In this document: piece by piece, positions 19,389 through 59,170 of the stretch
Layout: each line of letters begins with the position of its first letter
Numbering within the stretch: the first letter of the stretch is position 1
NCBI GenBank assembly: GCA_026395175.1
Contig: JAPLZF010000015.1
Coordinates: 21,066-85,065, forward strand
From: Candidatus Staskawiczbacteria bacterium
Lineage (GTDB): Bacteria > Patescibacteriota > Minisyncoccia > Minisyncoccales > Staskawiczbacteraceae
DNA: 64,000 nucleotides
Reading direction: 5' to 3'
Notes under the pieces: model-generated
What the model saw: the letters and a program-made list of their open reading frames with translations, nothing else
The model's database searches: none
Told to the model about the DNA's origin: nothing
Translations under genes and position numbers: made by a program

Positions 19389-19455
19389 TTACCCAGTTAA
19401 ATAATTTTGCCCTGCAAAATTAAAATCTTCTGGATTTTATTTAACAGGGTGAATT
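19389..19455. repeat. Nested-palindrome repeat, copy 1 (between the gap start and the grx stop)
   Basis: TTTACCCAGTTAAAT-AATTTTGCCCTGCAAAATT-AAAATCTTCTGGATTTT-ATTTAACAGGGTGAAT. This is terminal inverted repeats enclosing two hairpins. The right end encodes the grx C-terminus ...IHPVK plus its stop. Confidence 0.8.
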
Positions 19456-19676
19456 TTTAATAATTTATCTATTTTTTCTTTATCAAAACCAATTATAATT
19501 TCTCCGTCTATGTCAACAACCGGCACTCCCATTTGGCCGGAATCTTTTATCATTTTTTGCAATTGTTTTTCATCTTTCGATATGTCAATATCCTCGAATT
19601 CAATATTGTTTTTTTTGAAATATCCTTTCAAAGTTTTGCAATAAACACAGGTTGGTGTGGAGTATATTTTGTTCAT
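19437..19676 (-). CDS. Glutaredoxin/NrdH-like small redoxin
   Basis: 79 aa. Has the CVYC (CxxC) motif in MNKIYSTPTCVYCKTLK and a GVPVV motif typical of the glutaredoxin fold. Confidence 0.8.
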   Translation of the reverse strand: MNKIYSTPTCVYCKTLKGYFKKNNIEFEDIDISKDEKQLQKMIKDSGQMGVPVVDIDGEIIIGFDKEKIDKLLKIHPVK

Positions 19677-19677
19677 A

Positions 19678-20754
19678 TTATTGGGCAGGAGCGCAGTTGG
19701 CGCCGGTAGAGCCGGAATTTCCCGAGGCCGAACCAGATGAGCTGTACATTGCCGAAAAAGATGATGCAGCTGCGGTTGTGTTTAATTTTGTGGAGCAGAA
19801 GCTTGGTTTTGTTGTAAAACCGGCGCACGCCATTGATTTGACTCCGTCTGAAGACCTGCCTCCATAACCTGTTTCGTCAATTACAACTCCGTTTAAAATT
19901 AAAGTTGGCGAACCCTGAACATCATATTTTGTCGCCAAAGCAAAATCTTTTTGGGCATAAGCTATTCCTTTGCTCGGGTCTGAAGCGCAGGAATTTAATT
20001 TTGCTGAATCCACACCGGTGGAAGTTTCGCATCCTGCCGTGTCCCCTGTTTTCATTTGGCAGGAAACATAATTCCAATATTTTGCCGGCTGTTCTTCCCT
20101 AATGCAAATTTGCCTTAAATTTTCTGTTGCCTCTGCATCGCCGTGCATTGAAACCAACTTGTTGCCGGAAACAGAACCAATATATCTGACTTTTATATAT
20201 TGAGCCAAAGCCGGTAAATTTTTGACTGCATCAGCCATTGCTCTCTGCATTTGCAGGCCATAAGGGCATCGCGCCACAACAAAGGCTTCCAGCATTGGAT
20301 TTGCTGTTTTTGTAACAGACGCGGTTGGCTGGTTTGAGCCCGTGTCTGTGTTTGCGCTTGCATTTTCTGATGTAGAGGCGCTAGTTTTTTTTGGGCTCAT
20401 ATCAAAAGCCTGCGGAAATAATAATTTTCCATCTTTTGTGGCGTATGAATCAAATTCTGTTGTTCCAATTTTTATTTTTACTTTAACCAATCCCGATGCT
20501 TCGGAAACACTTACCAATGAAGCCGGCGTTGCTGCCAACTGATTGTCATTGATATATTTTATGGCTTGTTCCCCAATTTGTTTGTCTGAATAACCAAAAA
20601 TGCTTGAAATAGAAAAGCTGTGATTTTGATTGGCATAAATCAATCCACCGGTTATTATAATTGCAATTATTGCGATACAGACAAGAATAGTATTCCTATT
20701 CATTTTTTTCAGCTTGTTTATCAGCGAGCTGAATATGTTTTTAAAATTATACAT
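19678..20754 (-). CDS. Membrane-anchored DsbA-like thioredoxin-fold protein
   Basis: 358 aa. N-terminal TM, S/T-rich linker, then a DsbA-like region: VVARCPYGLQ...QGSPTLILNG. It has a single-Cys CPYG rather than CxxC, so the activity is uncertain. Confidence 0.55.
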   Translation of the reverse strand: MYNFKNIFSSLINKLKKMNRNTILVCIAIIAIIITGGLIYANQNHSFSISSIFGYSDKQIGEQAIKYINDNQLAATPASLVSVSEASGLVKVKIKIGTTEFDSYATKDGKLLFPQAFDMSPKKTSASTSENASANTDTGSNQPTASVTKTANPMLEAFVVARCPYGLQMQRAMADAVKNLPALAQYIKVRYIGSVSGNKLVSMHGDAEATENLRQICIREEQPAKYWNYVSCQMKTGDTAGCETSTGVDSAKLNSCASDPSKGIAYAQKDFALATKYDVQGSPTLILNGVVIDETGYGGRSSDGVKSMACAGFTTKPSFCSTKLNTTAAASSFSAMYSSSGSASGNSGSTGANCAPAQ

Positions 20755-20808
20755 ATTTTTTATTTTAATAATATTTTAATAATAGTTTATTATATTACAT
20801 TATAATTT

Positions 20809-21405
20809 TTATGCAAACTTTGTATATTTATTTCCGTCAAAATCATATTTAATCAAAGCGCCAAAGGGCAATTCCAAGTCAATAATTTTTTCGTCATCAA
20901 TACCTTCGGCATATTTTACAATTGCCCGCAAACTGTTATGACTGGCAACAACTAAAATATTTTTTCCGGCTTTCAAATCTTTTTCAATGTATTCCTTAAA
21001 AAATGGGACTGCTCTTTTATACACATTTTCCAAAGATTCTCCCCCCGGCGGAGCCACATTCCAGCTTCTTCTCCACAAATGTACTTTTTCCTCACCATAT
21101 TTTTCAATTGTTTCCTCTTTATTCAAGCCCTGCAACTCACCATAATTTCTTTCGTCCAGCGCTTTATCAATAACTATCGGTAAATCTTTTGCGCCTAAAT
21201 TATTTAAAATCAACGAAACGGTTTCCTTATTTCTAATCAACGGCGAAGTATAAATTTTATCTATTTTTTCGCCAGACAATTTTTCGGCAATTCTTTTGGC
21301 ACTCTCAATTCCCTCCTCGCACAACGGCACATCTGTCCAGCCAGTAAATCTATTTTCTAGGTTCCACTGCGATTTTAAATGCCTTAATAAAAATAATTTT
21401 GCCAT
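20809..21405 (-). CDS. gpmA: Histidine-phosphatase family protein, 2,3-BPG-dependent phosphoglycerate-mutase-like
   Basis: 198 aa. LLRHLKSQWNLENRFTGWTDVPL matches the dPGM RHGxSxWN..NRFTGW motif, and a second His region SHNSLRA is present. It is shorter than typical GpmA. Confidence 0.75.
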   Translation of the reverse strand: MAKLFLLRHLKSQWNLENRFTGWTDVPLCEEGIESAKRIAEKLSGEKIDKIYTSPLIRNKETVSLILNNLGAKDLPIVIDKALDERNYGELQGLNKEETIEKYGEEKVHLWRRSWNVAPPGGESLENVYKRAVPFFKEYIEKDLKAGKNILVVASHNSLRAIVKYAEGIDDEKIIDLELPFGALIKYDFDGNKYTKFA

Positions 21406-21415
21406 ATAAAATGTA

Positions 21416-21505
21416 GCGAGGCAATAAACTTTTTGTAGGCCCAGGTCGACTTGCCCGAAGAGGCAAAGCGAGTTCCTGCTTGCCGAAAAAAGTTTGTTGT
21501 CGAGC
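21416..21505. repeat. GC-richer imperfect palindromic intergenic element
   Basis: Outer arms are GCGAGGCAATAAACTTTTT and AAAAAAGTTTGTTGTCGAGCG (imperfect). Inner hairpins are TTGCC-cgaaga-GGCAA and GGCAAAGC..GCTTGCC. It fills the eno-gpmA spacer. Confidence 0.5.
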
Positions 21506-21507
21506 GA

Positions 21508-22734
21508 TTATTTAAGTTCTTTTTCTATTTCTAATAATCTTTGATATTTTACCATTCTTTCTTCTTTTGCAGGAGAACCGGCCTTCAAAAAGTCTGCCCC
21601 CAACCCAACTGCCAAGTCTGCAATAAAATTGTCCATAGTCTCACCACTGCGATGCGATACAATTGTTTTCCATCCATAAGATTTTGCTAAATTACAAGCC
21701 TCTATTGTTTCAGAAACCGTCCCAATTTGATTTAATTTTAAAATAACTCCATTGCAAGCCAATTTATTATGCGCCTCTTTTATTCTTTTAATATTTGTTG
21801 TTGTCAGGTCGTCTCCAACAATAGTAATTTTTTCGCCTAATTGTCGCACAATAGATTCAAAACCTTGCCAATCTTCTTGTGAAAATGGATCTTCAATGGA
21901 AATTATGTCAAATCTTTTTACTAAATCCTCATAAAATTCCAAAAGTTCTGTTCTTGCCAATTCCCTGCCGTCTATTTTATATTTTCCATCCTTATAAAAT
22001 TCCGAAGCCGCGCAATCTAAAGCAAATTTTACATCTGTTTCGCCATCAACTGCATTTTTCAACAAATAAAGCGCTTGTTCAATGTTTGAAATTGGAGGAG
22101 CAAATCCCCCTTCATCTCCCAAATCCAAATTTTCTTTTCCAAAATTTTTCTCAATATTTTCTTTTAAATTATTAAATATTTTGTTGCACGAAATCAAACT
22201 TTCTGCAAAAGAATTTTTATCAGGAATAACCATAAATTCCTGAATTGCCAATTTGTCCACCCCTCGACTGTCGCTCGGGGTCCTTCGGACATGCGCCCCG
22301 CCATTCAAAATATTAAACATCGCCATCGGAAGTCGGTGGGACGTCCGACGTCCCACCGCTAACTCTGAAATGTGTTGATATAAGGGAATTTTTTTAGAGG
22401 CGGCACCCGCTCGGCAAACTGCCAAAGAAACAGCTAAAATTGCATTGGCTCCCAGCTTTGACTTGTTTTCAGTTCCGTCTAATTCAATTAAAAGGTTGTC
22501 TATTGCCTTTTGATTTAATACGTCCTGGCCCTTTAATTTTGGTGCAATAATTTCATTTACGTTTTTAATTGCCTGCTGAACTTCAACAACAGCTGCTTCA
22601 TTTACTCCAGTAGAAGCACCACTTGGCACAGAATCAACAAATATTCCCTTATCTGTTTCCAGCTCAACTTCAATAGTCGGATTCCCTCGTGAATCCTTAA
22701 TCTCCCTCGCAACTATGCTTTTTATTTTACTCAT
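21508..22734 (-). CDS. eno: Enolase (phosphopyruvate hydratase)
   Basis: 408 aa. Contains AREIKDSRGNPTIEVE, SGASTG, DDLTTTN, SHRSGET and LLEIE. It also carries two GC-rich palindromic in-frame segments (see findings). Confidence 0.95.
   Translation of the reverse strand: MSKIKSIVAREIKDSRGNPTIEVELETDKGIFVDSVPSGASTGVNEAAVVEVQQAIKNVNEIIAPKLKGQDVLNQKAIDNLLIELDGTENKSKLGANAILAVSLAVCRAGAASKKIPLYQHISELAVGRRTSHRLPMAMFNILNGGAHVRRTPSDSRGVDKLAIQEFMVIPDKNSFAESLISCNKIFNNLKENIEKNFGKENLDLGDEGGFAPPISNIEQALYLLKNAVDGETDVKFALDCAASEFYKDGKYKIDGRELARTELLEFYEDLVKRFDIISIEDPFSQEDWQGFESIVRQLGEKITIVGDDLTTTNIKRIKEAHNKLACNGVILKLNQIGTVSETIEACNLAKSYGWKTIVSHRSGETMDNFIADLAVGLGADFLKAGSPAKEERMVKYQRLLEIEKELK
22258..22303. repeat. 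GC-rich in-frame insert in eno (encodes ..HVRRTPSDSRGVD..)
   Basis: CCACCCCTCGACTGTCGCTCGGGGTCCTTCGGACATGCGCCCCGCC. E. coli enolase reads GGEHADNNVDIQEF here, so this copy is about 9 aa longer. Confidence 0.6.
22335..22359. repeat. Perfect 12-1-12 palindrome inside eno (encodes ..GRRTSHRL..)
   Basis: CGGTGGGACGTC-C-GACGTCCCACCG. It is GC-rich in an AT-rich gene and lies in a variable enolase loop. Confidence 0.7.
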
Positions 22735-24574: not shown

Positions 24575-26305
24575 TTAACTTTTAAATTTAACTTTTCTTA
24601 AAAACGCTGGTATTTCCCATTCTTTTTCCTGCGCCAATCTCTTTTTTTCTAAAAGTTCTTCGGCTTCTTTGATTTCCAAACCGCTTCTCCTTATTGTTTT
24701 TTTAATTGAAGATGATGCTTCAACAACATCTAGTCTTCTTTGTTCTAAAACCGGAATACCCGGAGAGCGCTCGGGAACAGGAACCTCAAACACAGGAATA
24801 ATGGAAACCTGCTTTTCCTTCTTTTTTACCGACTTTTTATTTTTTACCCGTTCGACTCCGCTCAGGGCAGGTTTTTTCGCTTTTGGTTTTGCTTCTTTTT
24901 TGATTATTTTTTCAACAGGCTCTGGCTTAACTAATTTTGCGGGTTCTATTTTCTCCTCAATTATTTTTTCTTCGGCTTGCCCGCCGGTCATCAAAATTGT
25001 GGTTTTTATTTTGTTTTTCAGCTTTGAATCTTTTGAAATTCCAAAAATAATTTTTGCTTTAGGATTTTGGTTAGATATGTGGCTGCTGATTTTTTCCACT
25101 TCAAACATTGAAAGATTTTCAGAACCCACAATATTGAACAAAATCTTTTCCGCTTTCAAATTGCTGTTCTGCAAAAGAGGATTTTTAAAAATATTTTCGC
25201 AGGTTTTTTCCACTCTGTTTTTGCCTTGCTGTTCAATGGTGTTTAAAAATGCCGAATTTCCCCTGCCTTTTAAAATTGTCCGCAAATCGGCAAAATCAAT
25301 ATTTATAATTCCCGGATTGTAAATTAGGTCTATTAAGCTTTCCAAAGATTCAATCAGGCTTTTATTGACGGTTGAAAAAGCATTTGTAATTGGCGTTGAT
25401 TCGTCAATAATTTTAAAAATTTTCTCATTGGGAATCACCAGAGAAACATTTAACGATTGGCGTAAAGATTTTAAGGCATTCAAAGCTATGCGCTGTTTGT
25501 TTTTGCCTTCAAATTTAAATGGCATTGTAAATATGCCAAAAGTAATTCCGCCAAAATCTTTTGCGGCTTCCGCAAAAACCTGCGTGGCTCCAGAGCCCAA
25601 TCCTCCTCCCAAAGAAGCCACAAAAATTATTATGTCTTGGTTTTCAAAAAATGCGCCAATTTTTTCTTTGGCCGACTCGGCCGCTTGTTTTGCCAGCTCA
25701 ACATTAACTCCGGTTCCCAAGCCGTGAGTCATTTCCTCGCCAAACCAGAAATATTTTATTCCGGATTTCTTTTTTAATGCCCGAATGTCGGTGTCGGCAA
25801 TAACAAAAGTTGCCTTTTCCAAGGACCTGCCAATTTCAGAAACAATTGAGCCACCTCCCCCGCCAATTCCAATAACTTTAATTTTTGCCTTAAACAAAGA
25901 CTCTGCCGGAAACTCTGTTATTTGAGGTTTTGGAGAGGCTTTTCTTGCCCTGTTAAATAATTTCGGCTTTGCCGAAATTCCCGCTTTGCGGGATTTAACA
26001 GGGTGAACTTTTTTAATAATTAACTTTTTTACAAGTTTTTTTGTTTTTACAGGCTTACGCTTTACTATTTTTTTTATTATCTTTTTAGGTTTTACAGCCT
26101 TTTTTATTGCCTTTCTTGCCCTGTTAAATAATTTCGGCTTTGCCGAAATTCCCGCTTTGCGGGATTTAACAGGGTGAACTTTTTTGACAATTTTTTTCTT
26201 ATTTAAAATCTTCCTGCGTTTTGCGGGCTTCTTTTTTTTTATTATATTTTTTTTCCCTCGCCTCGCCGAAGCTTTACGCGAAGGCGGGTTCTTTTTCTTT
26301 GGCAT
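24575..26305 (-). CDS. ftsZ: Cell division GTPase FtsZ with a long lysine-rich repeat-containing N-terminal extension
   Basis: Tubulin/FtsZ motifs are VIGIGGGGGSIV and ASLGGGLGSGATQV. The preferred start is MPKKKNPP (26305), which has a TATAAT 6 nt upstream. The ORF track extends to 26344. Confidence 0.9.
   Translation of the reverse strand: MPKKKNPPSRKASARRGKKNIIKKKKPAKRRKILNKKKIVKKVHPVKSRKAGISAKPKLFNRARKAIKKAVKPKKIIKKIVKRKPVKTKKLVKKLIIKKVHPVKSRKAGISAKPKLFNRARKASPKPQITEFPAESLFKAKIKVIGIGGGGGSIVSEIGRSLEKATFVIADTDIRALKKKSGIKYFWFGEEMTHGLGTGVNVELAKQAAESAKEKIGAFFENQDIIIFVASLGGGLGSGATQVFAEAAKDFGGITFGIFTMPFKFEGKNKQRIALNALKSLRQSLNVSLVIPNEKIFKIIDESTPITNAFSTVNKSLIESLESLIDLIYNPGIINIDFADLRTILKGRGNSAFLNTIEQQGKNRVEKTCENIFKNPLLQNSNLKAEKILFNIVGSENLSMFEVEKISSHISNQNPKAKIIFGISKDSKLKNKIKTTILMTGGQAEEKIIEEKIEPAKLVKPEPVEKIIKKEAKPKAKKPALSGVERVKNKKSVKKKEKQVSIIPVFEVPVPERSPGIPVLEQRRLDVVEASSSIKKTIRRSGLEIKEAEELLEKKRLAQEKEWEIPAFLRKVKFKS
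25944..26008. repeat. Nested-palindrome repeat, copy 2 (inside ftsZ coding sequence)
   Basis: CTTGCCCTGTTAAAT-AATTTCGGCTTTGCCGAAATT-CCCGCTTTGCGGG-ATTTAACAGGGTGAAC. It is translated in frame as VHPVKSRKAGISAKPKLFNRARKA. Confidence 0.85.
26115..26179. repeat. Nested-palindrome repeat, copy 3 (inside ftsZ, 171 nt from copy 2)
   Basis: The 65 nt are identical to copy 2. A 171-nt (57-codon) tandem duplication keeps the frame. Confidence 0.85.
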
Positions 26306-31135: not shown

Positions 31136-31185
31136 TTTTCTATTATACCACAAAAATAAAAACGGGACACAACCAAAAACCCGAC

Positions 31186-31210
31186 CAACTCGGGTTAATT
31201 GGTTAGAAAT
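31186..31210. repeat. 25-nt conserved box, copy 1 (upstream of the amidohydrolase promoter)
   Basis: CAACTCGGGTTAATTGGTTAGAAAT is identical to 40565-40589. Confidence 0.8.
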
Positions 31211-31329
31211 GATGGCTGTCCTAATTTTCATTTTCTTGACCCCATTTTCTGCAAAAGCAAACCTCTTCTTATAGGCGATGAAGATGATAAAATTATCTTT
31301 TTCATTATAATATTAAAATTATTATTTTT

Positions 31330-32453: not shown

Positions 32454-33445
32454 TCTAATTGTCTGTGATAGATAGATCCTCCTTGTTTGTAAGTGTAATC
32501 ATCTTGGTAATTGGTTGGAGTTAATAGCACTCCTGTATCGGGATTTAATGGATTAACCATTGAACCATTGCCAACATTAGTTGTTACGTGATCTATTCTA
32601 CCATCTGAGGTGTAATCATAAAATGTCACCGTGCCCCTACTCCTACTATCTGATGAAACTGAATAATTTCTATATAAGTCATCCGCACCGCGATCTCCAA
32701 AGTTCGGATTTGCACTTTGTCTAATACCATAGATAACTGCCCCAGAACAATCAACAGAATCAGGTCCGTTGGCTCCCCACACATAAGGTTTTCCAACAAG
32801 TTTCTCTTCAATTGCAGCATATTTGCCATTATAATATTGTGTCGTTTGGATTTTTGGCGACTGATGAGATGAATAAGAAGGTTGTGCAATTGATATACTA
32901 CTTGGACTCTTATTTTGCAAATGGTTCGGAGATATACTGCCATCGCCTCCGCCAATTACAGTTGACAGTAATGATTTCCACGCAGATACAAGAGAACTAA
33001 TAATAGAAACCAACGATGATGCTCGACCACTCGGATCACTCCGATTGATAGGGTTGTCATTCGCGTATGAGTAACTATTCAAAGCTTGCGGGTTTGCCAA
33101 AAGCGTTTGCTGGTCTTGTCCAGTAAGTTGTTTTATTTGATTTTCATCGCCAATCGCGAGAGCGACCGGGTCTTCGCTTGTGAATCTTGCCAGCGCGGAG
33201 TTGTAGTATCTTGCGTTGAGGTAATTTAATCCTGTGTCGGCGTCAAACTCCTGTCCAATGTATTTCCTCTGCTCTGAAAAGGCAGAGGACCCTGAGCCCG
33301 TCGAAGGGTGCGTATCAATTCTAATTGCTCCAAATGGGAAGTAATCTAAAGTTTCAGCAATAGTGCCGGCGGAGTCGGTCATCACGCTGGATGAGTTAAG
33401 ATTTTCTGCGTGGTTATAATATATTTTAGCATTAATTCCTATCAT
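32432..33445 (-). CDS. Orphan Rhs C-terminal cassette: Rhs core end plus NlpC/P60 peptidoglycan hydrolase toxin domain
   Basis: AKIYYN..LNSSSVMTDSAG...DYFPFG...QRKYIGQEFDADTGLNYLNARYYNSALARF.SEDP parallels the main Rhs. The C-terminus GKPYVWGANGPDSVDCSGAVIYG has the NlpC/P60 catalytic Cys. The start is set to MIGIN (33445), 6 nt after TGGTATAAT. Confidence 0.75.
   Translation of the reverse strand: MIGINAKIYYNHAENLNSSSVMTDSAGTIAETLDYFPFGAIRIDTHPSTGSGSSAFSEQRKYIGQEFDADTGLNYLNARYYNSALARFTSEDPVALAIGDENQIKQLTGQDQQTLLANPQALNSYSYANDNPINRSDPSGRASSLVSIISSLVSAWKSLLSTVIGGGDGSISPNHLQNKSPSSISIAQPSYSSHQSPKIQTTQYYNGKYAAIEEKLVGKPYVWGANGPDSVDCSGAVIYGIRQSANPNFGDRGADDLYRNYSVSSDSRSRGTVTFYDYTSDGRIDHVTTNVGNGSMVNPLNPDTGVLLTPTNYQDDYTYKQGGSIYHRQLDWQKITQ
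33193..33266. repeat. 74-bp segment identical to 34721-34794 (Rhs core-end recombination substrate)
   Basis: AATCTTGCCAGCGCGGAGTTGTAGTATCTTGCGTTGAGGTAATTTAATCCTGTGTCGGCGTCAAACTCCTGTCC occurs in both copies, and the flanks are homologous but diverged. Confidence 0.85.
33288..33310. repeat. Short GC-rich repeat, copy in the orphan Rhs cassette (encodes HPSTGSGS)
   Basis: GGACCCTGAGCCCGTCGAAGGGTG. It is absent from the paralogous position of the main Rhs, which reads DNKTSSFTEQRKY. Confidence 0.7.
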
Positions 33446-33489: not shown

Positions 33490-33951
33490 CTACCCCCTTT
33501 TATGACTTTTTTCATTTCTATTTTGCTTGTATATTTGATTTAATTGGTAATCATCCAGATTTTTTATTTCTTCAAGGATTTTTTCTATCCTTTCTTTGTA
33601 TTGTTCGGGAAATGCAACAATAAAAGTTTGTATTAAATCTTTATCTTTAGTGTACGGATTTGAATGAGAGATATCATTAAGTATTTTCAACAATATAAGC
33701 ACGTCTTTATCTCCAAGGTTAGGGACGTCTTCATGATAAATAACAAAATGTTTATTTGATAACCAGCTAAAATCCGATAACAATTCATCGAAATAATCCC
33801 AATTATCACAAAAATTTCCAGGAAATTTAAAAACATCTGCATAGCTCTGTAATAGCTCTTTTTTAGAAGCTATGCCGGTGGGAATAATACCCACATAGGC
33901 ATCTGGATTTTTATTGAAATCTTCAAGTTTTCCGAATTTAATGTTTACCAT
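33490..33951 (-). CDS. Barstar-like RNase inhibitor (immunity protein)
   Basis: 153 aa directly downstream of the Rhs toxin. FCDNWDYFDELLSD resembles the barstar NLDALWDCLTG helix region. Confidence 0.65.
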   Translation of the reverse strand: MVNIKFGKLEDFNKNPDAYVGIIPTGIASKKELLQSYADVFKFPGNFCDNWDYFDELLSDFSWLSNKHFVIYHEDVPNLGDKDVLILLKILNDISHSNPYTKDKDLIQTFIVAFPEQYKERIEKILEEIKNLDDYQLNQIYKQNRNEKSHKRG

Positions 33952-33955: not shown

Positions 33956-36900
33956 TTAGCGTTTAATTGTAGTTATACTTTGGTAATGGTCTGATGTATA
34001 ATACATATCGCCGTTTTTAGTGCCCACTAACATTCTTTCTGCTGTATTGGATGGTGCTCCAGAATTATTTACCGGATATTCTAAATATTGATTCCCGTTA
34101 TTGTAATTTAATTGTGAATGACCTTCGGCATTTCGATAAAATTCAGTTAATCCTGTGTTTTTATTAATTTTAGGTCCTATCTTTCCAGATTCTATCGCGT
34201 CAACAGTCGGCTGAAGATTAACCTTGCCTTGATATATACTCTTTCCAAACTGTTTTACGCTAGTGTCTATTTCTAAACTATTCTCTGCCGACAATGTCTT
34301 ACCTAACCCGCCTAATAATTTAGCTGTTGTTCCAGCTCCAATCCATCCACCCAACATTTCTCCAGAATTGTAATCAAACTGGTCTTTACTAATCTTCCCA
34401 GAAACACAATCTTGATAGTTTTTATATGATCCATAAACTGTCGCCGCACCTGCCATAGAAACCACGCCCACTCCAATACCTGTAGCAATTGCAGCAGGAA
34501 TCTCTATTGGTAAGGCTGTGATAGCACCAGCAACTAATACAGTTACAGCACCTGCATACACAACACCCCTTGCAGATCCTTGCACAAAAGTTTTCCAGCT
34601 TTGTCCTGTCGGATCGCTTAATGTTATCGGGTTGTTGCGTGAATAGCTGTAATAATTGAGTTGTTGCGGGTCGGCGAGAAACTTTTCGGGGTTGTCTCGT
34701 GATGCTGAATCTTCGGAGATAAATCTTGCCAGCGCGGAGTTGTAGTATCTTGCGTTGAGGTAATTTAATCCTGTGTCGGCGTCAAACTCCTGTCCGATGT
34801 ATTTTCTCTGTTCTGTGAAAGAACTTGTTTTGTTGTCTATGCGGATTGCGCCGAATGGGAAATAATCCATTGTTTCTGCCAGCGCACCAGCCGAGTCAGT
34901 CATCACGCTGGAAGAATTGAGCGAGTCGGTTGCGTTGTAGTAAATCTTGGCAACTGCTCCTGTTCCATTTATTGTAGCAATATTTTGGTTATTTGCAAAG
35001 ATGTGCTTTACAATAGATGTTGGGTTTTGGGTGGTTGGTGTTAGATATGAAGCGTTATAGTTTTGTGTTGGGTAATATGTCGAGCTCGCAAGCGAAGATC
35101 CTAAACCTGGCGAAGGATTAGTTGTAATTTTAATTCTCTGGCCGTTTGCGTCGTAGGCGTAAGTTGTGGTTGTGTTGGCAGAAATGTTTGTGGCAGAAAC
35201 AAGCCGGTTGTTGTAATCATAAGTGTACGAATTTATTCCGTCGCTTGTGATATTTCCATTTTGGTCGTACTGAAAATTATTAGTTCCCGGGTCGCCGATG
35301 GTAAAAGTTTTTGGCGAATTAGAAAGCAAAAAGTTTGCTCCGCCGGCGGAATCTATGCCGTAAATGTAAATCGTGTGCGGTTTGCCGTCTTGGTATTTTG
35401 CCGGAATTGAATAAATAAAGCGGTGGTTTCCGGTGTAAGCCGGAAAAACTTTTGTAACATCTGGGCTTGCGGTGTTGGCGGAAACTCGAGAAAGAAATGT
35501 TCCTGTTCCTATTGCGCCGTCTATGTAAATATCAACAGAAATTGATGTGTTTGGAACATCTGGGTCGGCTGTCCAGCCATAAGCTATCCAGCCGGCATAA
35601 GTGGTGCTCATAACGCCGTCAATGTATCCAACAGGAACGCGGTTTGAAGCCAAAATTATTTTGGCAATCGGCTCGGCAGATTTGCCGACCACAACTGTTT
35701 GCGAATTAGTTTTGGTTGCAGAAGTTTTTGTGACAGCGTCTGGATTTGCGTAAGAAGAACCTGCGTTATTTAAATTTCCTTTGTAATCGTAAGTTGTTGT
35801 TGTGTCGTTTAATTTTTGAGACAGCATATTTCCCAAAGCGTCGTAAGTAAAACTCTGAGTGTATGCTTGCTGGCCCGAGGCAACATTTGTTGCAGTTGAC
35901 GAAAGCAAGCGATACAAATCGTCATAAGTGTAAGCAACTGTCTTTTTAGAATCAGTGGCTGAATTGTCAACAAACTGAATAATATTGCCTACGTTGTCAT
36001 AGATATAAGCAAGATTTTGCAGTTGCGTTCCTGTGGCGGTGTTTGTAATTTTGTTTGCCAGCCGGTAAAGCTTTGCAGAATCGTAAGTGTTGGTGGAAAT
36101 TGCGCCATTGGCAAAACTTTCTGTAGTAATTTGCTCAAGCGGCGAATAATCAAAGTTTGAGATTACATTAGCAAACGCTGTGTCAGTTGATTCTTTTTTT
36201 TGTATCTGGTCAAGAAGACCGGCTGGATTGTAAATGTTTTTAATTTGCGAATTGTCAGGATTTATAATTAAAATTTGGTTTCCTTGGCGGTCAAAATTGT
36301 ACTGGGTTATGAAAGTTTTTGTGTCAATTATTTTTGTGTCTTTGGTTATGTTTCCCAAAGATGAATATTCATATTGCTCGGTTTGCTGAGCAGAAACGCT
36401 TTTGCACAAAAGTCCTTTTCCGTTTGGACAAGCGTCGTAAATAAAAGTTGCCTCCACGCCGGCTTTGCCGGCATAATCTTCGCTGGTTTTTCTGTTTAGA
36501 GCGTCAAAATTATAATTAATTGTCTGATTTTTCGCGTCAGTCAAACTGATTAAATTTCCAACATTGTCATAAGTGTAATTCCAAACACCAAAAACAGAAT
36601 CCGTAGGATTGTGCAAATCTTCTGCGATTAATTTTCTGTCCAAACCGTCGTAAGAAAAATTTCTGACATTTCCCAAAGCATCTGTGATGTTGATTAAGTC
36701 AGAAAGGCCGTTATACGAATAATAAGTGGAATAAATATTTGAAGCATTGTGTTCGCCAACTTGAATTAAATTCCCATAAGCGTCTTCATAAAAGTCTTTT
36801 GTTTTTCCGTTGGCATCGGTAACGGAAGTTTTCCAATTGTTGTAAGCTGTGATTGTCGCGCCAACAGAATTTATTGATGACACGGCGCGGTTTAATGCAT

Positions 36901-40546: not shown

Positions 40547-40564
40547 ATATTTTAAAAAACCTCT

Positions 40565-40589
40565 CAACTCGGGTTAATTGGTTAGAAAT
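40565..40589. repeat. 25-nt conserved box, copy 2 (upstream of the Rhs promoter)
   Basis: CAACTCGGGTTAATTGGTTAGAAAT is identical to 31186-31210. Confidence 0.8.
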
Positions 40590-40612
40590 TACGCATGACT
40601 ATATTTACGCTT

Positions 40613-41162: not shown

Positions 41163-42509
41163 TTATTTACTAATTGATTTTTTTGGTTGCAGAGCGCCTA
41201 AGCCGGGCCAATTAAAAGTCGCCGGAATGGATTGCTGGCTCGAGTAGCGGGTCCAAGAATCAACGTGAATTGGGCTATTTTTTGAACGGTCAGAAACAGT
41301 GTAACCACCATCTTTGTTTTGAGTAAAATTTTGAGCGAACAATGCCTTATCAGGTCTTGCATTCTGTTCTAATGTATAAATTGTCCCGCCATTATTATAC
41401 GCATTAGCTACCACTTCTACAATTGTTCCCACATGACCATAGCTCTGGTCATCGCTTGTCCATGTCATAAGGTCATTTTCTTGAGGCAACACAGAACTGC
41501 CATTTTTATAAACCGCCATCGAACCGGAATTTTTATTATTCTCCATCACTCTATTGACTTCCTTTTGATTGCCATAATTAATTGCACCCTCTTTTCCTAT
41601 TCCAGAAATGTTTATATCATATTGAGCCTTATAAAATTTTTGAACAAAAGTAGTACATTGCTGAAAATTATTTTCATCAAGAGGTCCGTATTCTCCACGG
41701 CTATTTACGTTCACACCTCTATAACTGGCTATTGCTTCCCCATAACTATAACCATAAATCCCTCCTAATGGTAAATACGGCTGTATTTCTGAAACTTTCT
41801 TGCCACTTGGATCGCTCAAAGTTATTGGATTATTCTGAGCGTAGCTATAAAGATTCAGCTGTTGCGGGTCGGCAAGGAACTTTTCAGGGTTATCTCTTGA
41901 TACTGGGTCTTCTGACAAAAACTTTGCTATACTGCTATTGTAATACCTTGCATTGAGATAGTCCAACCCTGTGGATGAATCGAAGTCCTGACCGAGGAAT
42001 TTCTTTTGTTGCGGGTTTTGACCTGTTGCTGTGTTGTCTAATCTGATTTGCCCGAAAGGAAAATAGTCAATTGTTTCTGCGGGTTTGTTGTCTATCGATA
42101 GAACATTTGTAATACTGCCTTGGTGGTCTGTTAAGACCGGCTGGAGAACAGCTGTTTGACCGGTTCCGCTGATTGTGGCAACCAATGTTCCGTTGGCATT
42201 AACATACTTTGTGATTTTTTCTGGAGATTTGTTGCCTTTGGAGTCGGTTGTATATGAAACGCTGTAATCTTTTGAGGGGTAATAGGTGGTTTCCGAACTG
42301 CCATCTGAATTTTGGACAACCATTTTTATTCGCTGACCTTGCGGGTCGTATGAGTAAGTTGTGACTGCGCCGGTGGATGTGTTTGTGGCAGAGGTAAGGC
42401 GATTGTTATAGTCATAGGTGTAAGTGGTGGCGAGCGCGGGCGCTATTGGCTGCAATGCAAAAATGAGAGCAAACGCCGCCACAATCATTTTGCGCAAAAC
42501 TTTACCCAT
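41163..42509 (-). CDS. Short secreted Rhs-repeat protein with a C-terminal CHAP amidase/peptidase toxin domain
   Basis: 448 aa with a signal peptide. YTYDYNNRLTSATN..YSYDPQGQRIK are YD repeats. The core end is DYFPFG...RYYNSSIAKFLSEDP. The CHAP-like Cys is in QQCTTFVQKFY and the His in YGHVGTIVEV. Confidence 0.75.
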   Translation of the reverse strand: MGKVLRKMIVAAFALIFALQPIAPALATTYTYDYNNRLTSATNTSTGAVTTYSYDPQGQRIKMVVQNSDGSSETTYYPSKDYSVSYTTDSKGNKSPEKITKYVNANGTLVATISGTGQTAVLQPVLTDHQGSITNVLSIDNKPAETIDYFPFGQIRLDNTATGQNPQQKKFLGQDFDSSTGLDYLNARYYNSSIAKFLSEDPVSRDNPEKFLADPQQLNLYSYAQNNPITLSDPSGKKVSEIQPYLPLGGIYGYSYGEAIASYRGVNVNSRGEYGPLDENNFQQCTTFVQKFYKAQYDINISGIGKEGAINYGNQKEVNRVMENNKNSGSMAVYKNGSSVLPQENDLMTWTSDDQSYGHVGTIVEVVANAYNNGGTIYTLEQNARPDKALFAQNFTQNKDGGYTVSDRSKNSPIHVDSWTRYSSQQSIPATFNWPGLGALQPKKSISK

Positions 42510-47638: not shown

Positions 47639-49180
47639 ATGCTAACAAAAAAACAAACCCAAACATTAGACTATATCAAAAAATACATAGAAGAAAAAAA
47701 CTATTCCCCCACGCTTGAAGAGATAAGAGACAATTTTGGTCTCTCCTCGGTTTCCACCATACACGAACACGTGCAAACTCTTAAAGAAAAGGGATATTTA
47801 GAAAAAATAGAAAATCAACCAAGGTCAATCGAATTATCCCAAAACAAAAAATTTGAATTGTTAGAAATCCCTCTGCTTGGGATTATCGCTGCCGGACAAC
47901 CCATAGAGGCGATTGAAATTCCAGAAGAAACAATAACTATACCAAAAAATGACGTTGGAAAATTTGGAAAATTTTATGCCTTGAAAGTTCGAGGAGACAG
48001 CATGATAGACGAAGGAATTTTCGACGGCGATATAGTTGTGCTCAGAGAACAAAAAATTGCTGAAGACGGCCAAACCGTTGTTGCAATTATTGACGACAAC
48101 CAAGCAACGCTTAAAAAAATATATCGGGAGAAAAATAAATTTCGTTTGCAACCGGCAAATCAAAATCTTTTACCATTTTTCAGAACTAATGTGGAAATTC
48201 GCGGTGTAGTTGTAAAAGTTATACGAAACCTTGAAATCAACAGAGAAAATACACTAGAAAACAGGAAAAAAGTATTTTTAGAAAGAATAAGAAGCAAAAA
48301 TCCAGACAGTTCTAATAAATACAAAAGAGTCGTTGAATCGCCGATAAGATACGCTGGCGGAAAAAGTTTAGGAGTTGGATTTGTTGCAGAACTTTTACCA
48401 GATAATATAAATAGGATAATATCGCCATTTTTTGGCGGAGGATCAATTGAAATCGCTTTCAACAAATATCTTGGACTAGAGGTTGTCGGATATGATATTT
48501 TTGATATTTTGGTCAATTATTGGAATATCCAAATAAACAAGCCAAAAGCATTATTCAAAAGATTGTCAGAATTAGAGCCAAACGAAAAAACCTACAAAGA
48601 TATAAAAGAAAGATTGAAAAAACATTGGAAGAAAGAAAAAAAGATGGCTCCGATGGACTTAGCTGTTCATTATTATTTTAATCATAATCTATCATATGGC
48701 CCTGGATTTTTAGGCTGGCCATCTAGTATTTACCTTAAAAAAGAACGATATGAAACAACCATTGAGAAAGTCCGCGATTTTTCTGTTAACAATTTTGAAG
48801 TTAAATGCGCCAGCTTTGAAGAAGCTTTTGAAAAATACCCAAATGATTTTTTCTATTGCGACCCGCCATATTTGCTGGGCCATGACTCAAAAATGTTTAG
48901 AGGAATTTATCCAATGAGAAATATTCCTGTCCATCATAATGGATTTCCTCACGAAAAATTATTAGATTTACTAAAAAAACACAAAGGTGGCTTTGTGCTT
49001 TCTTACAACAATTGCCAAACTATAAGAGATTGGTATAAAGATTACAAACATTATTTCCCAACGTGGCAATATACAATGGGACAAGGAGAAACTAGAATAG
49101 GTAAAAACAGGATAGAAAACGGAGACAACCACATAAAACATTCCCACGAAATAATTATCTTCTGCCCTCCAGCAATTTAA
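47639..49180 (+). CDS. Fusion protein: full-length LexA (wHTH plus S24 self-cleaving domain) joined to a Dam-family (D12 class) N6-adenine DNA methyltransferase
   Basis: One uninterrupted 513-aa ORF. The LexA part has LTKKQ..LDYIKKYI..SPTLEEI, the cleavage site IIAAGQP, the catalytic Ser in VRGDSM, the Lys in QATLKKI, and ends ..RGVVVKVIRNL. A basic linker of about 35 aa follows. The MTase part has SPIRYAGGK, PFFGGGS (motif I) and FYCDPPY (motif IV). Confidence 0.85.
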   Translation: MLTKKQTQTLDYIKKYIEEKNYSPTLEEIRDNFGLSSVSTIHEHVQTLKEKGYLEKIENQPRSIELSQNKKFELLEIPLLGIIAAGQPIEAIEIPEETITIPKNDVGKFGKFYALKVRGDSMIDEGIFDGDIVVLREQKIAEDGQTVVAIIDDNQATLKKIYREKNKFRLQPANQNLLPFFRTNVEIRGVVVKVIRNLEINRENTLENRKKVFLERIRSKNPDSSNKYKRVVESPIRYAGGKSLGVGFVAELLPDNINRIISPFFGGGSIEIAFNKYLGLEVVGYDIFDILVNYWNIQINKPKALFKRLSELEPNEKTYKDIKERLKKHWKKEKKMAPMDLAVHYYFNHNLSYGPGFLGWPSSIYLKKERYETTIEKVRDFSVNNFEVKCASFEEAFEKYPNDFFYCDPPYLLGHDSKMFRGIYPMRNIPVHHNGFPHEKLLDLLKKHKGGFVLSYNNCQTIRDWYKDYKHYFPTWQYTMGQGETRIGKNRIENGDNHIKHSHEIIIFCPPAI

Positions 49181-54639: not shown

Positions 54640-54651
54640 ATTTTTTTCATA

Positions 54652-55646: not shown

Positions 55647-55711
55647 TTCACCCTGTCAAATAATTTTGCCAAAGTCAAAATTAGCGCAAAGCGCTATTTG
55701 ACAGGGTAAAC
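55647..55711. repeat. Nested-palindrome repeat, copy 4 (overlaps the metK stop)
   Basis: TTCACCCTGTCAAAT-AATTTTGCCAAAGTCAAAATT-AGCGCAAAGCGCT-ATTTGACAGGGTAAAC. The right end supplies the metK C-terminus ..VYPVK and its stop. Confidence 0.8.
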
Positions 55712-56894: not shown

Positions 56895-57333
56895 AACAAA
56901 AAAAGAAGCGGGTCTGTATTTGGTTTCAGACCCGCCTATGAGATGTGTTTTCGGGACATAACCAGCCTAAGCTGGTTGGCTAGCAAGACCGCCCGTTGCT
57001 GTCGGCCTCCTGTTTCTTTTTGGCATTACAGGCTGTCGCTGTCATCTCTTTGCGGGATATCGTCCCGTGGCGAAAAAAAGTGGAAAAGAGCAAAACGGAA
57101 CAGTTGGCAGAGGAGATTTGTATGCAAGGTTGTTCGGCACCAGAGAACTGGGGGAGGCTCTCTATACCTCGCACGCATTTACCTATCCCGCGATAGGCTC
57201 GTAGGGCATTGCACCCTAACGAAATCTCACAATCGAAGCTGGACGATTACACTATGATACGTACAGAGCATTCTCCTCGCGTAATAGATTATGCTGCTGT
57301 GCGTTGTGGGAGTGCTCTGCCAACTGTCCGAAT
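56895..57333 (-). ncRNA. Unclassified GC-rich structured RNA candidate (~380-nt core plus terminator)
   Basis: It has its own promoter (57340-57368) and terminator (GCGGGTCTG..CAGACCCGC plus T-run, 56895-56935). The 5' UUCGGAC (57326-57332) can pair with 3' GUCCCGAA (56950-56957). A perfect 13-bp long-range helix joins 57315-57327 and 57100-57112. There are several local hairpins, such as AACCAGC-uuag-GCUGGUU. No convincing ORF or SD is present. Confidence 0.45.
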
Positions 57334-57339
57334 GGTTTG

Positions 57340-57368
57340 ATGATAGCAAAGTTAACAGATTATGTCAA
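57340..57368 (-). promoter_or_regulatory. Promoter TTGACA-N17-TATCAT directly after the gatA stop
   Basis: The minus strand reads CTATTGACATAATCTGTTAACTTTGCTATCATCAAACC. Confidence 0.5.
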
Positions 57369-57371
57369 TAG

Positions 57372-58799
57372 TTACGACTCCATCTGCGAGGCTATGCTCA
57401 ATATCTTGTTTTCCTGAAAATGATTTCCGATAATCTGCAAACCAACCGGTAAGCCACCGACTTTTCCGGCTGGCAAAGACAATGCCGGCAAACCTGCCAA
57501 GTTTACAGAAATTGTATAAATATCCATTAAATAGTTTGCCAAAGGATCATCTGTTTTCTCTCCAATTTTAATTGCCGGCACCGGTGAAACCGGGCAAAAT
57601 ATTAAATCTACCTTTTCAAAGGCTTTTGCAAAATCCTGTTTTATCAATTGCCTGACCTCCTGAGCTTTTTTATAATATGCGTCATAATATCCGGACGACA
57701 AAGCATAAGTTCCAATAAGAATTCTTCTTTTGACTTCAGGACCTAATCCTTTCCCTCTGCTTTTTAAATAAACATCTAATAAGTTACCATCTTGTTCTGA
57801 CAATCCATATCTTATTCCATCGAACCTGGCCAAGTTAGCTGAAGCTTCGCAGGGAACTATAATATAATAACAAGCCAAAGCAAATTCTGCATTGGGCAAA
57901 CTTATTTCTTTAATTTCAGCCCCGGCTTCTTTTGCTTTTTTAATTGCATCTTTTACTATTTTTTCAACTTCCGGGTCCAATCCTTTTACCTGTCCTGAGC
58001 CGTGTCGAAGGGCAAAATATTCTTTTGGAACTCCAATTTTTAAACCTTTTAAATTTATGTCAGATTCCTCGAATTTATAATCAACAGAAGTTGCATCTTT
58101 TGAATCTTTTCCACAAATTGCTTCAAAAATAATTTTGCAATCCTCAACATTTTTTGCCATCGGTCCAATTTGGTCTAAAGATGATGCATGAGCAATTAGT
58201 CCATACCTTGAAACCGCTCCATAGGTTGGTTTTAAGCCCACAATACCGCAATTAGAAGATGGCATCCTAATTGAGCCTCCTGTATCAGATCCTAAGGCAT
58301 AGCAGGCCTCATTTGCCGCCACAGCAGCTCCAGGGCCCGAAGAACTGCCTCCGGCAACTCTTGTCTTGTCGTGCGGATTTTTTGTTGCGCCAAATGCAGA
58401 ATTTTCTCCGCTTCCTCCCATTGTAAATTCATCTGTATTTCCTTTTCCTAAAATCACAGCTCCCGCTTCCTTTAATTTTTTTACAACAGTTGCATCATAC
58501 GGGGCTACATAATTTTCTAAAATTTTTGAGGCTGCTGTACATTTTTGCCCTTCAACCATTATTGCATCTTTTATTGCGCAAGGAATTCCGCAAAGAATTG
58601 AAAATTCTCCTGTTTTTATTTTTTCATCAGCTTTTCTTGCTTCTTCTAACGCTAAATCCTCTGTAATTGACAAATAAGCATTCAAATCGCTTTTCTTAAT
58701 TTTTTCCAAATAAGCCTTTGTCAAATCAACAGAAGTAAAATCTTTATTTTTTAATCCCTCGTGCGCCTGTTTAATTGTAAGTTCGGTTAAATCCTGCAT
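57372..58799 (-). CDS. gatA: Glutamyl-tRNA(Gln)/aspartyl-tRNA(Asn) amidotransferase subunit A
   Basis: 475 aa. The amidase signature is GGSSSGPGAAVA..GSDTGGSIR. It overlaps the gatC stop by 1 nt. Confidence 0.9.
   Translation of the reverse strand: MQDLTELTIKQAHEGLKNKDFTSVDLTKAYLEKIKKSDLNAYLSITEDLALEEARKADEKIKTGEFSILCGIPCAIKDAIMVEGQKCTAASKILENYVAPYDATVVKKLKEAGAVILGKGNTDEFTMGGSGENSAFGATKNPHDKTRVAGGSSSGPGAAVAANEACYALGSDTGGSIRMPSSNCGIVGLKPTYGAVSRYGLIAHASSLDQIGPMAKNVEDCKIIFEAICGKDSKDATSVDYKFEESDINLKGLKIGVPKEYFALRHGSGQVKGLDPEVEKIVKDAIKKAKEAGAEIKEISLPNAEFALACYYIIVPCEASANLARFDGIRYGLSEQDGNLLDVYLKSRGKGLGPEVKRRILIGTYALSSGYYDAYYKKAQEVRQLIKQDFAKAFEKVDLIFCPVSPVPAIKIGEKTDDPLANYLMDIYTISVNLAGLPALSLPAGKVGGLPVGLQIIGNHFQENKILSIASQMES
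57988..58013. repeat. Short GC-rich repeat, copy in gatA (encodes ALRHGSGQV)
   Basis: Plus strand is ACCTGTCCTGAGCCGTGTCGAAGGGC. The coding sense is GCCCTTCGACACGGCTCAGGACAGGTAAAA. Confidence 0.7.
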
Positions 58800-59089
58800 T
58801 ATAAAATAGTTTTAACTTTAATGTAGCCGTCTTTTTTATCCGGCGATGCTTCAATTATTCCACTAGCAATATCACTTCTCTCTACTTCGTCCTTTCGCAA
58901 ACCGCCACTACACGTTTTTTGCTCGAGCAAAATTTGTGCAGTTTCCGGTTTTGGAGCCTTCTTAAGCAAATCAAAATAATCCAAAATTGCCGACAGGTCT
59001 TTCTGCATTTTTTCTATTTCATTTTCAGTCAATTCAAGACGTGCTAGCTTCGCGATGTGCTCAACCTCCTGTTTAGATATCATAATCAA
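58799..59089 (-). CDS. gatC: Amidotransferase subunit C
   Basis: 96 aa. VEHIAKLARLELTENEIEKMQKDLSAILDYFDLL is the classic GatC N-terminus. Confidence 0.8.
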   Translation of the reverse strand: MIMISKQEVEHIAKLARLELTENEIEKMQKDLSAILDYFDLLKKAPKPETAQILLEQKTCSGGLRKDEVERSDIASGIIEASPDKKDGYIKVKTIL

Positions 59090-59100
59090 TTTTGCTATAT

Positions 59101-59170
59101 GTTCACCCGGTCAAATAAAATCCTTCGGATTTTAATTTTGGCAAAGCCAAAATTATTTGACTGGGTAGAC
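59101..59170. repeat. Nested-palindrome repeat, copy 5 (upstream of gatC)
   Basis: GTTCACCCGGTCAAAT-AAAATCCTTCGGATTTT-AATTTTGGCAAAGCCAAAATT-ATTTGACTGGGTAGAC. The hairpin order is inverted relative to copy 4. Confidence 0.8.

Follow-up and report, generated by a model that had tools for sequence, protein, structure and literature searches.

Rickettsia palindromic elements (RPEs), reportedly described by Ogata et al. in 2000, measure ~100-150 bp, have family-specific consensus sequences and are confined to Rickettsia and close relatives. Repeats of the REP (repetitive extragenic palindromic) or the MITE (miniature inverted-repeat transposable element) type are normally species-specific. The genomes of Patescibacteria are tiny and tightly packed, and are usually held to be poor in mobile DNA. 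Here we report on a short palindromic repeat in 64 kb of contig JAPLZF010000015.1 of Candidatus Staskawiczbacteria, a lineage of the Parcubacteria within the Patescibacteria or candidate phyla radiation (CPR); this whole stretch is called the window below. A sequence-only reading of the window had proposed an RPE-like mobile or structured element that enters coding sequence, and this proposal is supported by the comparison of empty and filled metK genes, by 112 of 120 FtsZ orthologues without the inserted segment and by copies elsewhere.

We consider it probable that the repeats are a family of small non-autonomous selfish palindromic elements, which would be recognised by their arms and moved in trans as a folded single strand. 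The comparisons show that the element inserts without duplicating its target, that it was copied recently, that it is symmetric and strictly foldable, and that no gene is linked to it; this explanation takes in all of these points.

Copies of the element in the window

Exactly five copies of 64-70 nt each occur in the window, at the places where the sequence-only reading had located them, and both a pattern search and a covariance model find those five only. The gapped arm pattern ACCCNGTYAAATN{20,50}ATTTRACNGGG matches at no other site of the window and gave 0 matches in 100 shuffles. The covariance model was trained on nine copies of equal length, two from the window and seven from other genomes, with C1 and C5 left out. 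Run unfiltered on the 64 kb, it recovers all five copies, including the untrained C1 (E ~1e-13) and C5 (E ~1e-16), and no sixth site below E=1. The copies, the genes concerned and two sequence remnants are as follows.

19388..19455, minus strand: copy C1, between grx and gap; covariance model 54 bits, E 2.8e-13
25944..26007, minus strand: copy C2, in frame in the ftsZ N-terminal extension, peptide VHPVKSRKAGISAKPKLFNRARKA; 85.9 bits
26115..26178, minus strand: copy C3, second in-frame ftsZ copy, identical in sequence to C2
25938..26192, minus strand: local duplication giving C2 and C3, from direct-repeat comparison
55647..55710, minus strand: copy C4, in the metK 3' end, gives YPVK and a TAG stop; 85.7 bits
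59102..59169, plus strand: copy C5, 18 nt upstream of the gatC ATG; 62.6 bits
19437..19676, minus strand: grx (glutaredoxin, 79 amino acids), tail KIHPVK* from C1; Pfam Glutaredoxin on syntenic orthologues
24575..26305, minus strand: ftsZ, 576 amino acids from the ATG (MPKKK); a lysine-rich N-terminal extension of 145 amino acids holds C2 and C3
55694..56752, minus strand: metK (S-adenosylmethionine synthetase, 352 amino acids), last four codons and stop from C4; ends EKVYPVK*
58799..59083, minus strand: gatC, functional start 18 nt downstream of C5
55633..55646, minus strand: ancestral end of metK including its stop, TAGACATAAAATAA (..V D I K *), displaced behind C4 and no longer translated; the same 14 nt end metK of the relative L121
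59170..59188, minus strand: remnant of a gatC start, ATGATTTCTAAAGAAGAGG (MISKEE), abutting C5 on its upstream side; corresponds to the genuine gatC start of relatives

The window has 33-43% G+C and nearly all of its genes lie on the minus strand. The gene order mreB-gatC-gatA-...-metK-...-ftsZ-...-grx-gap is common to the window and its relatives, and the window FtsZ is 100% identical to P0001, which bears the NCBI name FtsZ. All five copies are present as claimed, but C2 and C3 are not independent insertions. The 84-nt units at 25938-26021 and 26109-26192 are 96% identical at a spacing of 171 nt and reach ~10 nt past the element at either end. Because both copies are identical and lie within this direct repeat, they go back to one insertion followed by local duplication.

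Structure and covariation

The family unit of 50-75 nt consists of 15-nt inverted arms, TTYACCCNGTYAAAT and ATTTRACNGGGTRAA, around one or, more often, two short hairpins. Counts given for the whole family (134, 142, 144 and 147 copies) rest on the matches listed among 185,579 species genomes. Alignment of the flanks of 134 copies yields the arm consensus R-TTYA-CCCNGTYAAAT, in which conservation reaches four bases past the search pattern and then ends. The terminal inverted repeats around two hairpins are found in the window as described earlier, but the consensus letters given for them were slightly off: C1 has ACCCAGT, C2 and C3 have GCCCTGT, and the constant hairpin of C4 contains one mismatch.

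A three-way junction, which the sequence-only reading had suggested as the fold, is predicted for every window copy both as RNA and as single-stranded DNA (ssDNA). The outer stem and the two hairpins meet with zero unpaired bases in a tight junction, and the fold z-scores range from -2.9 to -7.4 for RNA and from -5 to -8 for ssDNA. Interiors made of exactly two hairpins that use every junction base are found in 78 of 147 copies of the family, compared with 0 of 2940 shuffled interiors.

The hairpin covariation is real. Across the family the inner hairpins have wholly different sequences but remain ~97% paired. Within the window the structure-preserving exchanges include AGCGC/GCGCT, CCCGC/GCGGG and AAAATCC/GGATTTT in the hairpins and T-A to C-G in the outer stem. 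The pattern is much stronger across 144 distinct model-aligned sequences, in which 95% of pair cells are standard pairs, ten pairs of the outer stem are essentially invariant and each of the 14 inner pairs has changed on both sides and occurs as all four Watson-Crick types (the observed score is reached in 0/500 shuffles), these pair statistics being drawn from an alignment fitted to the covariance model. G.T wobbles occur 4:4 on sense and antisense strands, and the excess of inner G.U pairs is not significant (19 vs 10), so that wobble asymmetry gives no RNA-strand signal. Copies of the family are found in both hairpin orders; in the window the order of C5 is opposite to that of C1-C4. Wobbles and hairpin orders thus display a symmetry at the DNA level, not one functional RNA strand.

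Related palindromes with variant arms were seen at L209:9970-10077 (TAAACCCCGTTAGAAAA...TTTTCTAACGGGGTAAAC, interior ~80 nt) and at L025:2455-2490 (CCCTGTTAGAT..ATCTAACGGGGTGAA). Their arm sequences suggest that a wider superfamily of arm variants may exist.

Insertion into genes

The metK gene of the window ends ..PWEKV-YPVK*, followed by the element and then by TAGACATAAAATAA, whereas the metK gene of L121 ends ..GAGAAAATTG TAGACATAAAATAA (..EKIVDIK*). Since the L121-type end matches the sequence behind C4, the ancestral codons and stop survive, displaced, in the window. The site is empty in four relatives (L121, L122, L129 and L209), and metK orthologues end in VDIK, IKLS, KID or a longer unrelated tail. 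This empty-versus-filled comparison proves insertion.

The 120 closest FtsZ orthologues all have a long, variable, K/R-rich N-terminal extension, which starts with the conserved motif MAKxKKK..PAKRRKVL and ends EFPAESLFKAKIKVIG; because of these conserved motifs at its start and end the extension is genuinely coding. The claim that two copies are translated inside ftsZ holds, as the peptide of C2 is present twice in the reading frame. The (H/Y)P(V/I)K-x11-FNR module is found, at differing positions, in 8/120 orthologues, and 112/120 are without it. VHPVKSRKAGISAKPKLFNR is a predicted peptide stretch of Staskawiczbacteria FtsZ.

Other recurring peptide modules stand at varying positions in the FtsZ extensions of Staskawiczbacteria (P0002-P0119). 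One of them, NPPSRKASARRGKK, is present in the window (26255-26300, ftsZ codons 6-19), where it is encoded by a GC-rich imperfect hairpin; the others are ILTGPSQSRRRRVWSGK, VIPAKAGIQKxSKxSGxPIxxGMTK, RLRAPRNDG, TLRHGSGQAKK and LRHVNLKK. To judge from their sequences, these modules look like further in-frame translated repeat families.

Upstream of gatC, the spacer to mreB measures 20-40 nt and is empty in five relatives; the window and L209 carry the element there, at the same junctions. The gatC 5' end occurs twice over ~20 nt, as a remnant mini open reading frame (ORF) at 59170-59188 that runs into C5 and as the functional start at 59065-59083. Because the remnant matches the true gatC start of the relatives, ~20 nt of the gatC 5' end are recognised on both sides of C5. 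The same doubled arrangement is found at L209:901-1020, and no comparably long duplication was seen at the metK or grx sites; none of the transposition models that we considered accounts for it. Between C5 and L209:920, an orthologous site with homologous flanks, the interior is flipped (identity 0.78 flipped vs 0.54 unflipped); this is the one such case among all locus pairs with similar flanks, and it could represent either an inversion between the arms or an independent insertion at a hot spot.

The mreB-gatC spacer is likewise the seat of other sequences. In L133 (5700-5740) it carries a different palindrome, GAGCGTGGGATT..AATCCCACACTC. In the window, where the genome has 36% G+C, it includes a 600-nt island of ~52% G+C beside C5 (59300-59900), at a position where the relatives' spacer is 20-40 nt long. 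Neither Pfam nor Rfam matches the island, and its RNA does not fold to excess (z -0.6, -0.3). It holds two small ORFs, each preceded by a Shine-Dalgarno site, on the plus strand and thus opposed to every neighbouring gene, one of 93 amino acids with two hydrophobic segments and one of ~62 amino acids that is cysteine-rich. It is probably a foreign mini-cassette.

Reading frames confirm the earlier claim that the ends ..IHPVK* of grx and ..VYPVK* of metK stem from the terminal repeat. On the minus strand, the first arm of C1 provides the last grx codons and the stop (ATT CAC CCT GTT AAA TAA), and 9 nt lie between the end of C1 and the gap start codon. The copy at grx is intact in the window (tail IHPVK*), and is reduced in L122 to a decayed remnant that keeps one hairpin, without replacement (tail IGPTK*); L209 has INPSK* without the element, and L121 has INQ*. 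Because the relatives have these tails, insertion at grx is ambiguous. The orthologue comparison therefore shows that the metK tail and the FtsZ segment are, as had been supposed, inserted and not ancestral, but does not extend this to grx.

A further set of filled sites is provided by a RAYT-like gene (RAYT, REP-associated tyrosine transposase) on the Thermodesulfobacteriota contig L111, in which close nucleotide alignment with an intact homologue reveals four insertions, each 50-56 nt long. No consistent target-site duplication was found at any offset or length among 142 copies, nor in five filled-versus-empty comparisons (metK and the four in L111). The TTY that precedes ACCC could be a target preference, as in insertion iv of L111, but insertion iii is without TTY.

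The manner in which a copy affects its host gene follows from its reading frame. Only one frame is free of stops through both arms (CAC CCT GTT AAA ... TTT AAC AGG GTG). Where the hairpin beside the 5' arm starts with A, the sequence reads AAA TAA or AAA TAG and the host gene ends ..HPVK*; where it starts with C, G or T (e.g. AAA TCC), the element is read through as HPVKS..FN(R/G)V, with the general peptide form (H/Y)PVK-x(8-16)-FN(R/G)V. Ends of the first type are found in grx (..IHPVK*) and metK (..YPVK*) of the window, RF2 in L056 (..IHPVK*) and about a dozen others, and in L076 both genes of a convergent pair end inside one copy. Intergenic copies often overwrite the last few codons of a gene, giving ..(H/Y)PVK*. 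In-frame hosts identified by Pfam include ribosomal protein L18, GatA, KsgA/RrnaAD, triosephosphate isomerase, DNA polymerase I, RmlD, a MalK-type ATPase and a class-I tRNA synthetase. When the GatA proteins of L008 and the window are compared by BLASTP, the element is seen as a loop insertion. Copies persist mainly where they do little harm, in tiny intergenic spacers, at gene ends and in protein loops or disordered segments. GatA of L008 also has a repeat-like insert of 19 amino acids, NSGINPFGKLRVDGERSRT, at residues ~335-355.

Distribution and multiplication

The sequence-only reading had looked to further copies beyond the window. A scan of 185,579 species genomes found at least 120 stretches with the element, against about ten chance matches that our own estimate under a uniform-composition model leads us to expect across this collection; some matches without interior structure may be such chance matches. 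The earlier restriction of the element to "this lineage" was far too narrow, as the family spans many phyla. To go by record titles, about half of the stretches listed belong to Patescibacteria from many classes; Saccharibacteria are among them, as is a complete Nealsonbacteria chromosome of 640 kb (CP179888.1), and a complete Doudnabacteria genome of 949 kb (CAVYGQ010000001.1) carries the element too. The other stretches listed come from WOR-3, Omnitrophota, Desulfobacterota/Thermodesulfobacteriota, Bacteroidota, Cloacimonadota, Calditrichota and others; those of Desulfobacterota/Thermodesulfobacteriota include a 4.1-Mb contig, for which misbinning of a CPR fragment is excluded. Viral contigs gave only 5 matches in 2.9 million, and the element is therefore not phage-borne. 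A BLAST search with the consensus element against PLSDB plasmids returned chance matches only.

Copies with 0-1 differences are found at unrelated loci of one metagenome-assembled genome (MAG) in two cases (L038/L044/L077 and L032/L098), and such sequences show that the element has multiplied recently within some genomes. Copy density differs between 5 in 64 kb in the window and 2 in 170 kb in related contigs. Adjacent or tandem copies abut end to end in L016, L022 and L087. Larger repeats likewise contain the T-shaped module: in Desulfobacterales and others (L019, L033, L049) and in WOR-3 (L017, L021, L025, L036) it is nested in ~230-nt repeats with inverted ends of their own (..CTTCGTAAAAAG ... 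CTTTTTACGAA..); in WOR-3 it is flanked by AACCACAGA direct repeats, and its interior there is not composed of two hairpins.

Rfam 15 at gathering score detected only tRNA-Ile in the whole window, and a scan of 59000-60000 at E<=10, which covers C5 only, gave no match on C5. Searches of the open literature returned chance primer matches only for the arm sequence, nothing relevant for palindromic or MITE elements in CPR, and only reviews of REP sequences, REP doublets forming hairpins (REPINs) and MITEs for repeats of this kind in general. The element is not described in the open literature searched, and is found in many uncultivated bacterial phyla.

Candidate enzymes and promoter signals

The RAYT-like gene of L111 (879-1810) encodes a Y1 transposase with the HUH motif HFH and ..NPVRAGLVDRPEEYRWSS, and is broken by four copies of the element in a span of 500 nt, two of which separate the segment with the catalytic tyrosine from the rest. 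The DNA for the conserved LNPVR motif (AACCCTGTC) resembles the element arm, and one copy abuts this motif DNA. A tblastn search with the Y1 protein against all loci matched L111 and, weakly, L002 only. Arm pairs 0.5-3 kb apart were found neither in 120 genome loci (~0.9 Mb) nor in the window, and no longer composite with the same ends was seen there. The only tyrosine recombinase of the window, which is Xer-like, scores far below integron-integrase cutoffs.

The suggestion that copies donate -35 boxes fared poorly. An exact TTGACA occurs in the arms of C4 only among the five copies, and the promoter-like site TAGACA-17-TATAAT at C4 lies in the displaced native metK sequence and is stronger than the element's own. 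Promoter scans found no element-borne match in C1 and C5.

Nature of the element and alternative explanations

If the element is a selfish palindrome mobilised in trans, its conserved arms would be the recognition site of the enzyme concerned, and it would move as a folded single strand, like REP/REPIN sequences mobilised by HUH/Y1 enzymes and elements of the IS200/IS605 type (IS, insertion sequence), rather than by DDE cut-and-paste. The inner hairpins would stay paired either because foldability is selected or automatically, through templated correction inside the palindrome. A bolder proposal, which we regard as doubtful, is that the family is an unrecognised pan-phylum class of mobile DNA with a conserved 15-nt arm and a free-running T-shaped interior, which would spread as a folded single strand via a nicking or hairpin-resolving enzyme, undergo parvovirus-like flip/flop and routinely remodel essential proteins in ultra-small bacteria (FtsZ, L18, tRNA synthetases, GatA), or else that the arm is a universal host-factor site which the element exploits.

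Several points weigh against a selfish element moved in trans. No transposase and no Y1 gene are present in the 64-kb window, and ~1.7 Mb of flanks hold one adjacent Y1 gene only, that of L111, which is itself disrupted by the element. Intact homologues of this gene are abundant and have no flanking element in six genomic contexts; a RAYT association is therefore unsupported. The ftsZ copies of the window (C2) and L209 show 2/64 differences, both in the outer tail, and 0/34 in the interior, while the proteins are only ~65% identical. The copy upstream of gatC is common to the window and L209, and some copies thus look old yet intact, which fits selection or gene conversion as well as it fits selfish spread. 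Insertion boundaries are uncertain by 1-3 nt, which leaves room for a duplication of 1-2 nt or for microhomology. Finally, the conservation of the arms is partly circular, since the matches were retrieved with a pattern that names those positions; the pattern has no bearing on the interior architecture or on the flanking TTYA/TRAA.

The preserved copies likewise speak for a structured RNA or DNA module under host selection, such as an element that stabilises mRNA 3' ends, a site of RNase processing between cistrons or a site bound by a conserved protein. Three of the five window copies lie exactly at gene boundaries, many copies elsewhere hold a stop codon in the first arm, the copy in L076 ends two convergent genes, and the structure is kept over large evolutionary distances, with apparently orthologous copies intact at gatC and within ftsZ. 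We nevertheless consider this explanation unlikely. Most orthologous sites in close relatives are empty and have no substitute structure, and the grx copy has decayed in L122 without being replaced. With respect to transcription both hairpin orders are found, copies also lie within the ORFs of unrelated proteins, and the wobble pairs are without strand bias. The sense strand has no T-tract after the element, terminator scans gave one small match to an inner hairpin of C4 only, and no Rfam family was matched.

A recombination site of the attC or Xer/dif kind, inserted or inverted by a tyrosine recombinase such as the Xer-like gene at 2696-3613, seems to us quite improbable. The arm sequences GTTAAAT and ATTTAAC do fit the attC core motifs GTTRRRY and RYYYAAC, but the two motifs stand in the reverse of the attC order (GTTAAAT ... 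ATTTAAC), and GTCAAAT in C4 and C5 breaks the GTT core. The arm also presumably shares TGTTAAAT with the XerD arm of dif, but the copies are dispersed and not at a single dif locus. A variable branched centre between conserved ends, the lack of target duplication, the encoded recombinase and the flipped interior in L209 are all as this explanation would have it; yet the flip is a single case among the locus pairs with similar flanks, cassette arrays and an integron integrase context are missing, and the neighbours are the housekeeping genes grx/gap, ftsZ, metK and gatC. Membership in attC and dif was rejected on motif order, dispersion and gene context.

More improbable yet is a conventional MITE, derived by deletion from a DDE insertion sequence whose terminal inverted repeats measure 15 bp. 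The element does have perfect inverted repeats at its ends, is small, and is found in several copies per genome and in subfamilies, and the alteration of C-termini by insertion at gene ends is paralleled in other small bacterial repeats, as far as the accessible parts of PMC2229807 and PMC3184786 go. Against this stand the missing target-site duplication (142 copies and five filled-versus-empty comparisons), the lack of a longer element with the same ends in the 120 genome loci and the window, and the strong compensatory upkeep of the interior hairpins, which would be unexpected in a decaying MITE.

It is almost certainly wrong that protein sequence of ancestral origin makes up the HPVK tails and the FtsZ segment, with palindromes that arose by chance or as a by-product of coding: xPxK tails are common in Grx orthologues (IGPTK*, INPSK*; also INQ*) and the two variable arm positions are third codon positions in the HPVK frame, but metK orthologues end otherwise and the VDIK* codons survive downstream of C4, 112/120 FtsZ orthologues are without the segment, the same element is found between genes and in unrelated proteins, the arm pattern has 0 chance matches in shuffles, and the orthologue comparisons refute this reading for metK and ftsZ.

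The repeat stands every 10-30 kb in some Patescibacteria, which, if it is indeed selfish DNA moved in trans, would mean an ongoing remodelling of genome and proteome, in which C-termini are rewritten and peptides of 15-25 residues are added to essential proteins. Its insertion explains recurrent "..HPVK" tails and "HPVKS..FNRV" inserts, which would else be taken for lineage-specific protein features and would mislead alignments, domain calls and the annotation of gene ends in MAGs. Identical arms in Patescibacteria, WOR-3, Omnitrophota and Desulfobacterota are unusual and point to horizontal spread or to a widely conserved recognising enzyme. The strict three-way junction with free sequence is moreover a clean natural system for the study of how DNA palindromes are maintained.

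Other loci in the window

Four further loci of the window were seen. An ORF on the plus strand, one of few plus-strand genes, combines LexA DNA-binding, S24 peptidase and D12-class N6-adenine DNA methyltransferase domains (47639-49180), which is an unusual combination. At another locus (33072-33273, 34611-34812 and 41809-42010; 33490-33951), repeated 200-nt segments are common to a protein of 2203 amino acids and an RHS/CHAP protein of 448 amino acids. A Barstar-like gene and an NlpC/P60 protein are found beside them, and the whole resembles a polymorphic-toxin locus that has spare toxin tips and a gene for immunity. A cluster at 2696-14502, which is possibly a mobile defence island, comprises the Xer-like tyrosine recombinase together with a type III restriction (Res) gene, two DNA methylases, DUF6998 and DUF5681. 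At the 5' ends of two minus-strand genes lies a 53-nt direct repeat (31175-31227 and 40554-40606; 77% identity), which contains the hairpin AACCCGA..CTCGGGTT and may be a shared leader or regulatory site.

Comparison with known systems

In adeno-associated virus and other parvoviruses, the telomeres of the linear ssDNA genome are T-shaped inverted terminal repeats (ITRs) of 125-145 nt, which serve hairpin-primed replication and are nicked by Rep. The likeness of the present element to them is an analogy only: a stem is closed by two small palindromes to form a three-way junction, and the two ITR configurations with differing order and orientation of the small palindromes (flip/flop) are paralleled once, between the window and L209. 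Copies of the element are interspersed in bacterial chromosomes, in contrast to the 5 matches in 2.9 million viral contigs.

Integron attC sites are recognised as folded single strands. Like them, the element is an imperfect palindrome whose outer motifs (RYYYAAC / GTTRRRY) are short and conserved and whose centre varies and is sometimes branched, but it differs in the reversed motif order, in the lack of cassettes, integrase context and extrahelical-base asymmetry, and in the occurrence of copies in housekeeping genes. Palindrome-associated elements derived from IS200/IS605 have no target duplication, insert 3' of a fixed tetra- or pentanucleotide and have asymmetric left and right ends with similar hairpins; in the present element no duplication is seen, the TTY before ACCC could be a target preference, the ends are symmetric and the two hairpins dissimilar.

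REP/REPIN sequences and their RAYT (Y1 HUH) enzymes are similar in that, as far as the accessible parts of PMC2817692 and PMC3116915 describe them, they are small non-autonomous palindromes thought to act as folded single strands, in which hairpin pairing is kept while the sequence drifts and which reach many copies per genome; here, too, there is no classical target duplication. The present element, by contrast, has no GTAG-type head and ends in TTYACCC../..GGGTRAA, its two inner hairpins are mutually unrelated rather than an inverted REP doublet, it is not limited to extragenic space, and no RAYT gene flanked by it was found in the loci and six homologue contexts examined.

With bacterial MITEs (Correia/NEMIS, ERIC, BOX, RUP, Nezha), in so far as the accessible parts of PMC2229807 and PMC3184786 cover them, it has in common terminal inverted repeats, small size, multiple copies, changed gene ends and possible promoter-like hexamers. 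It is distinguished by the lack of a target-site duplication and, in the 120 genome loci and the window, of a parent insertion sequence, by an interior that is kept in structure and not in sequence, and by the same arms across phyla.

From the RPEs, which are ~100-150 bp long, the element is set apart by its length of 50-75 nt, its T shape, arms that are shared across phyla, a hypervariable and covarying interior, and its hosts, which are Candidatus Staskawiczbacteria and other phyla outside the Rickettsiales. The likeness is one of behaviour, with no sequence relationship implied: both are short palindromic interspersed repeats that encode no gene, and both are found between genes and in frame within genes, including essential ones, where they place a peptide in a tolerated region of the protein.

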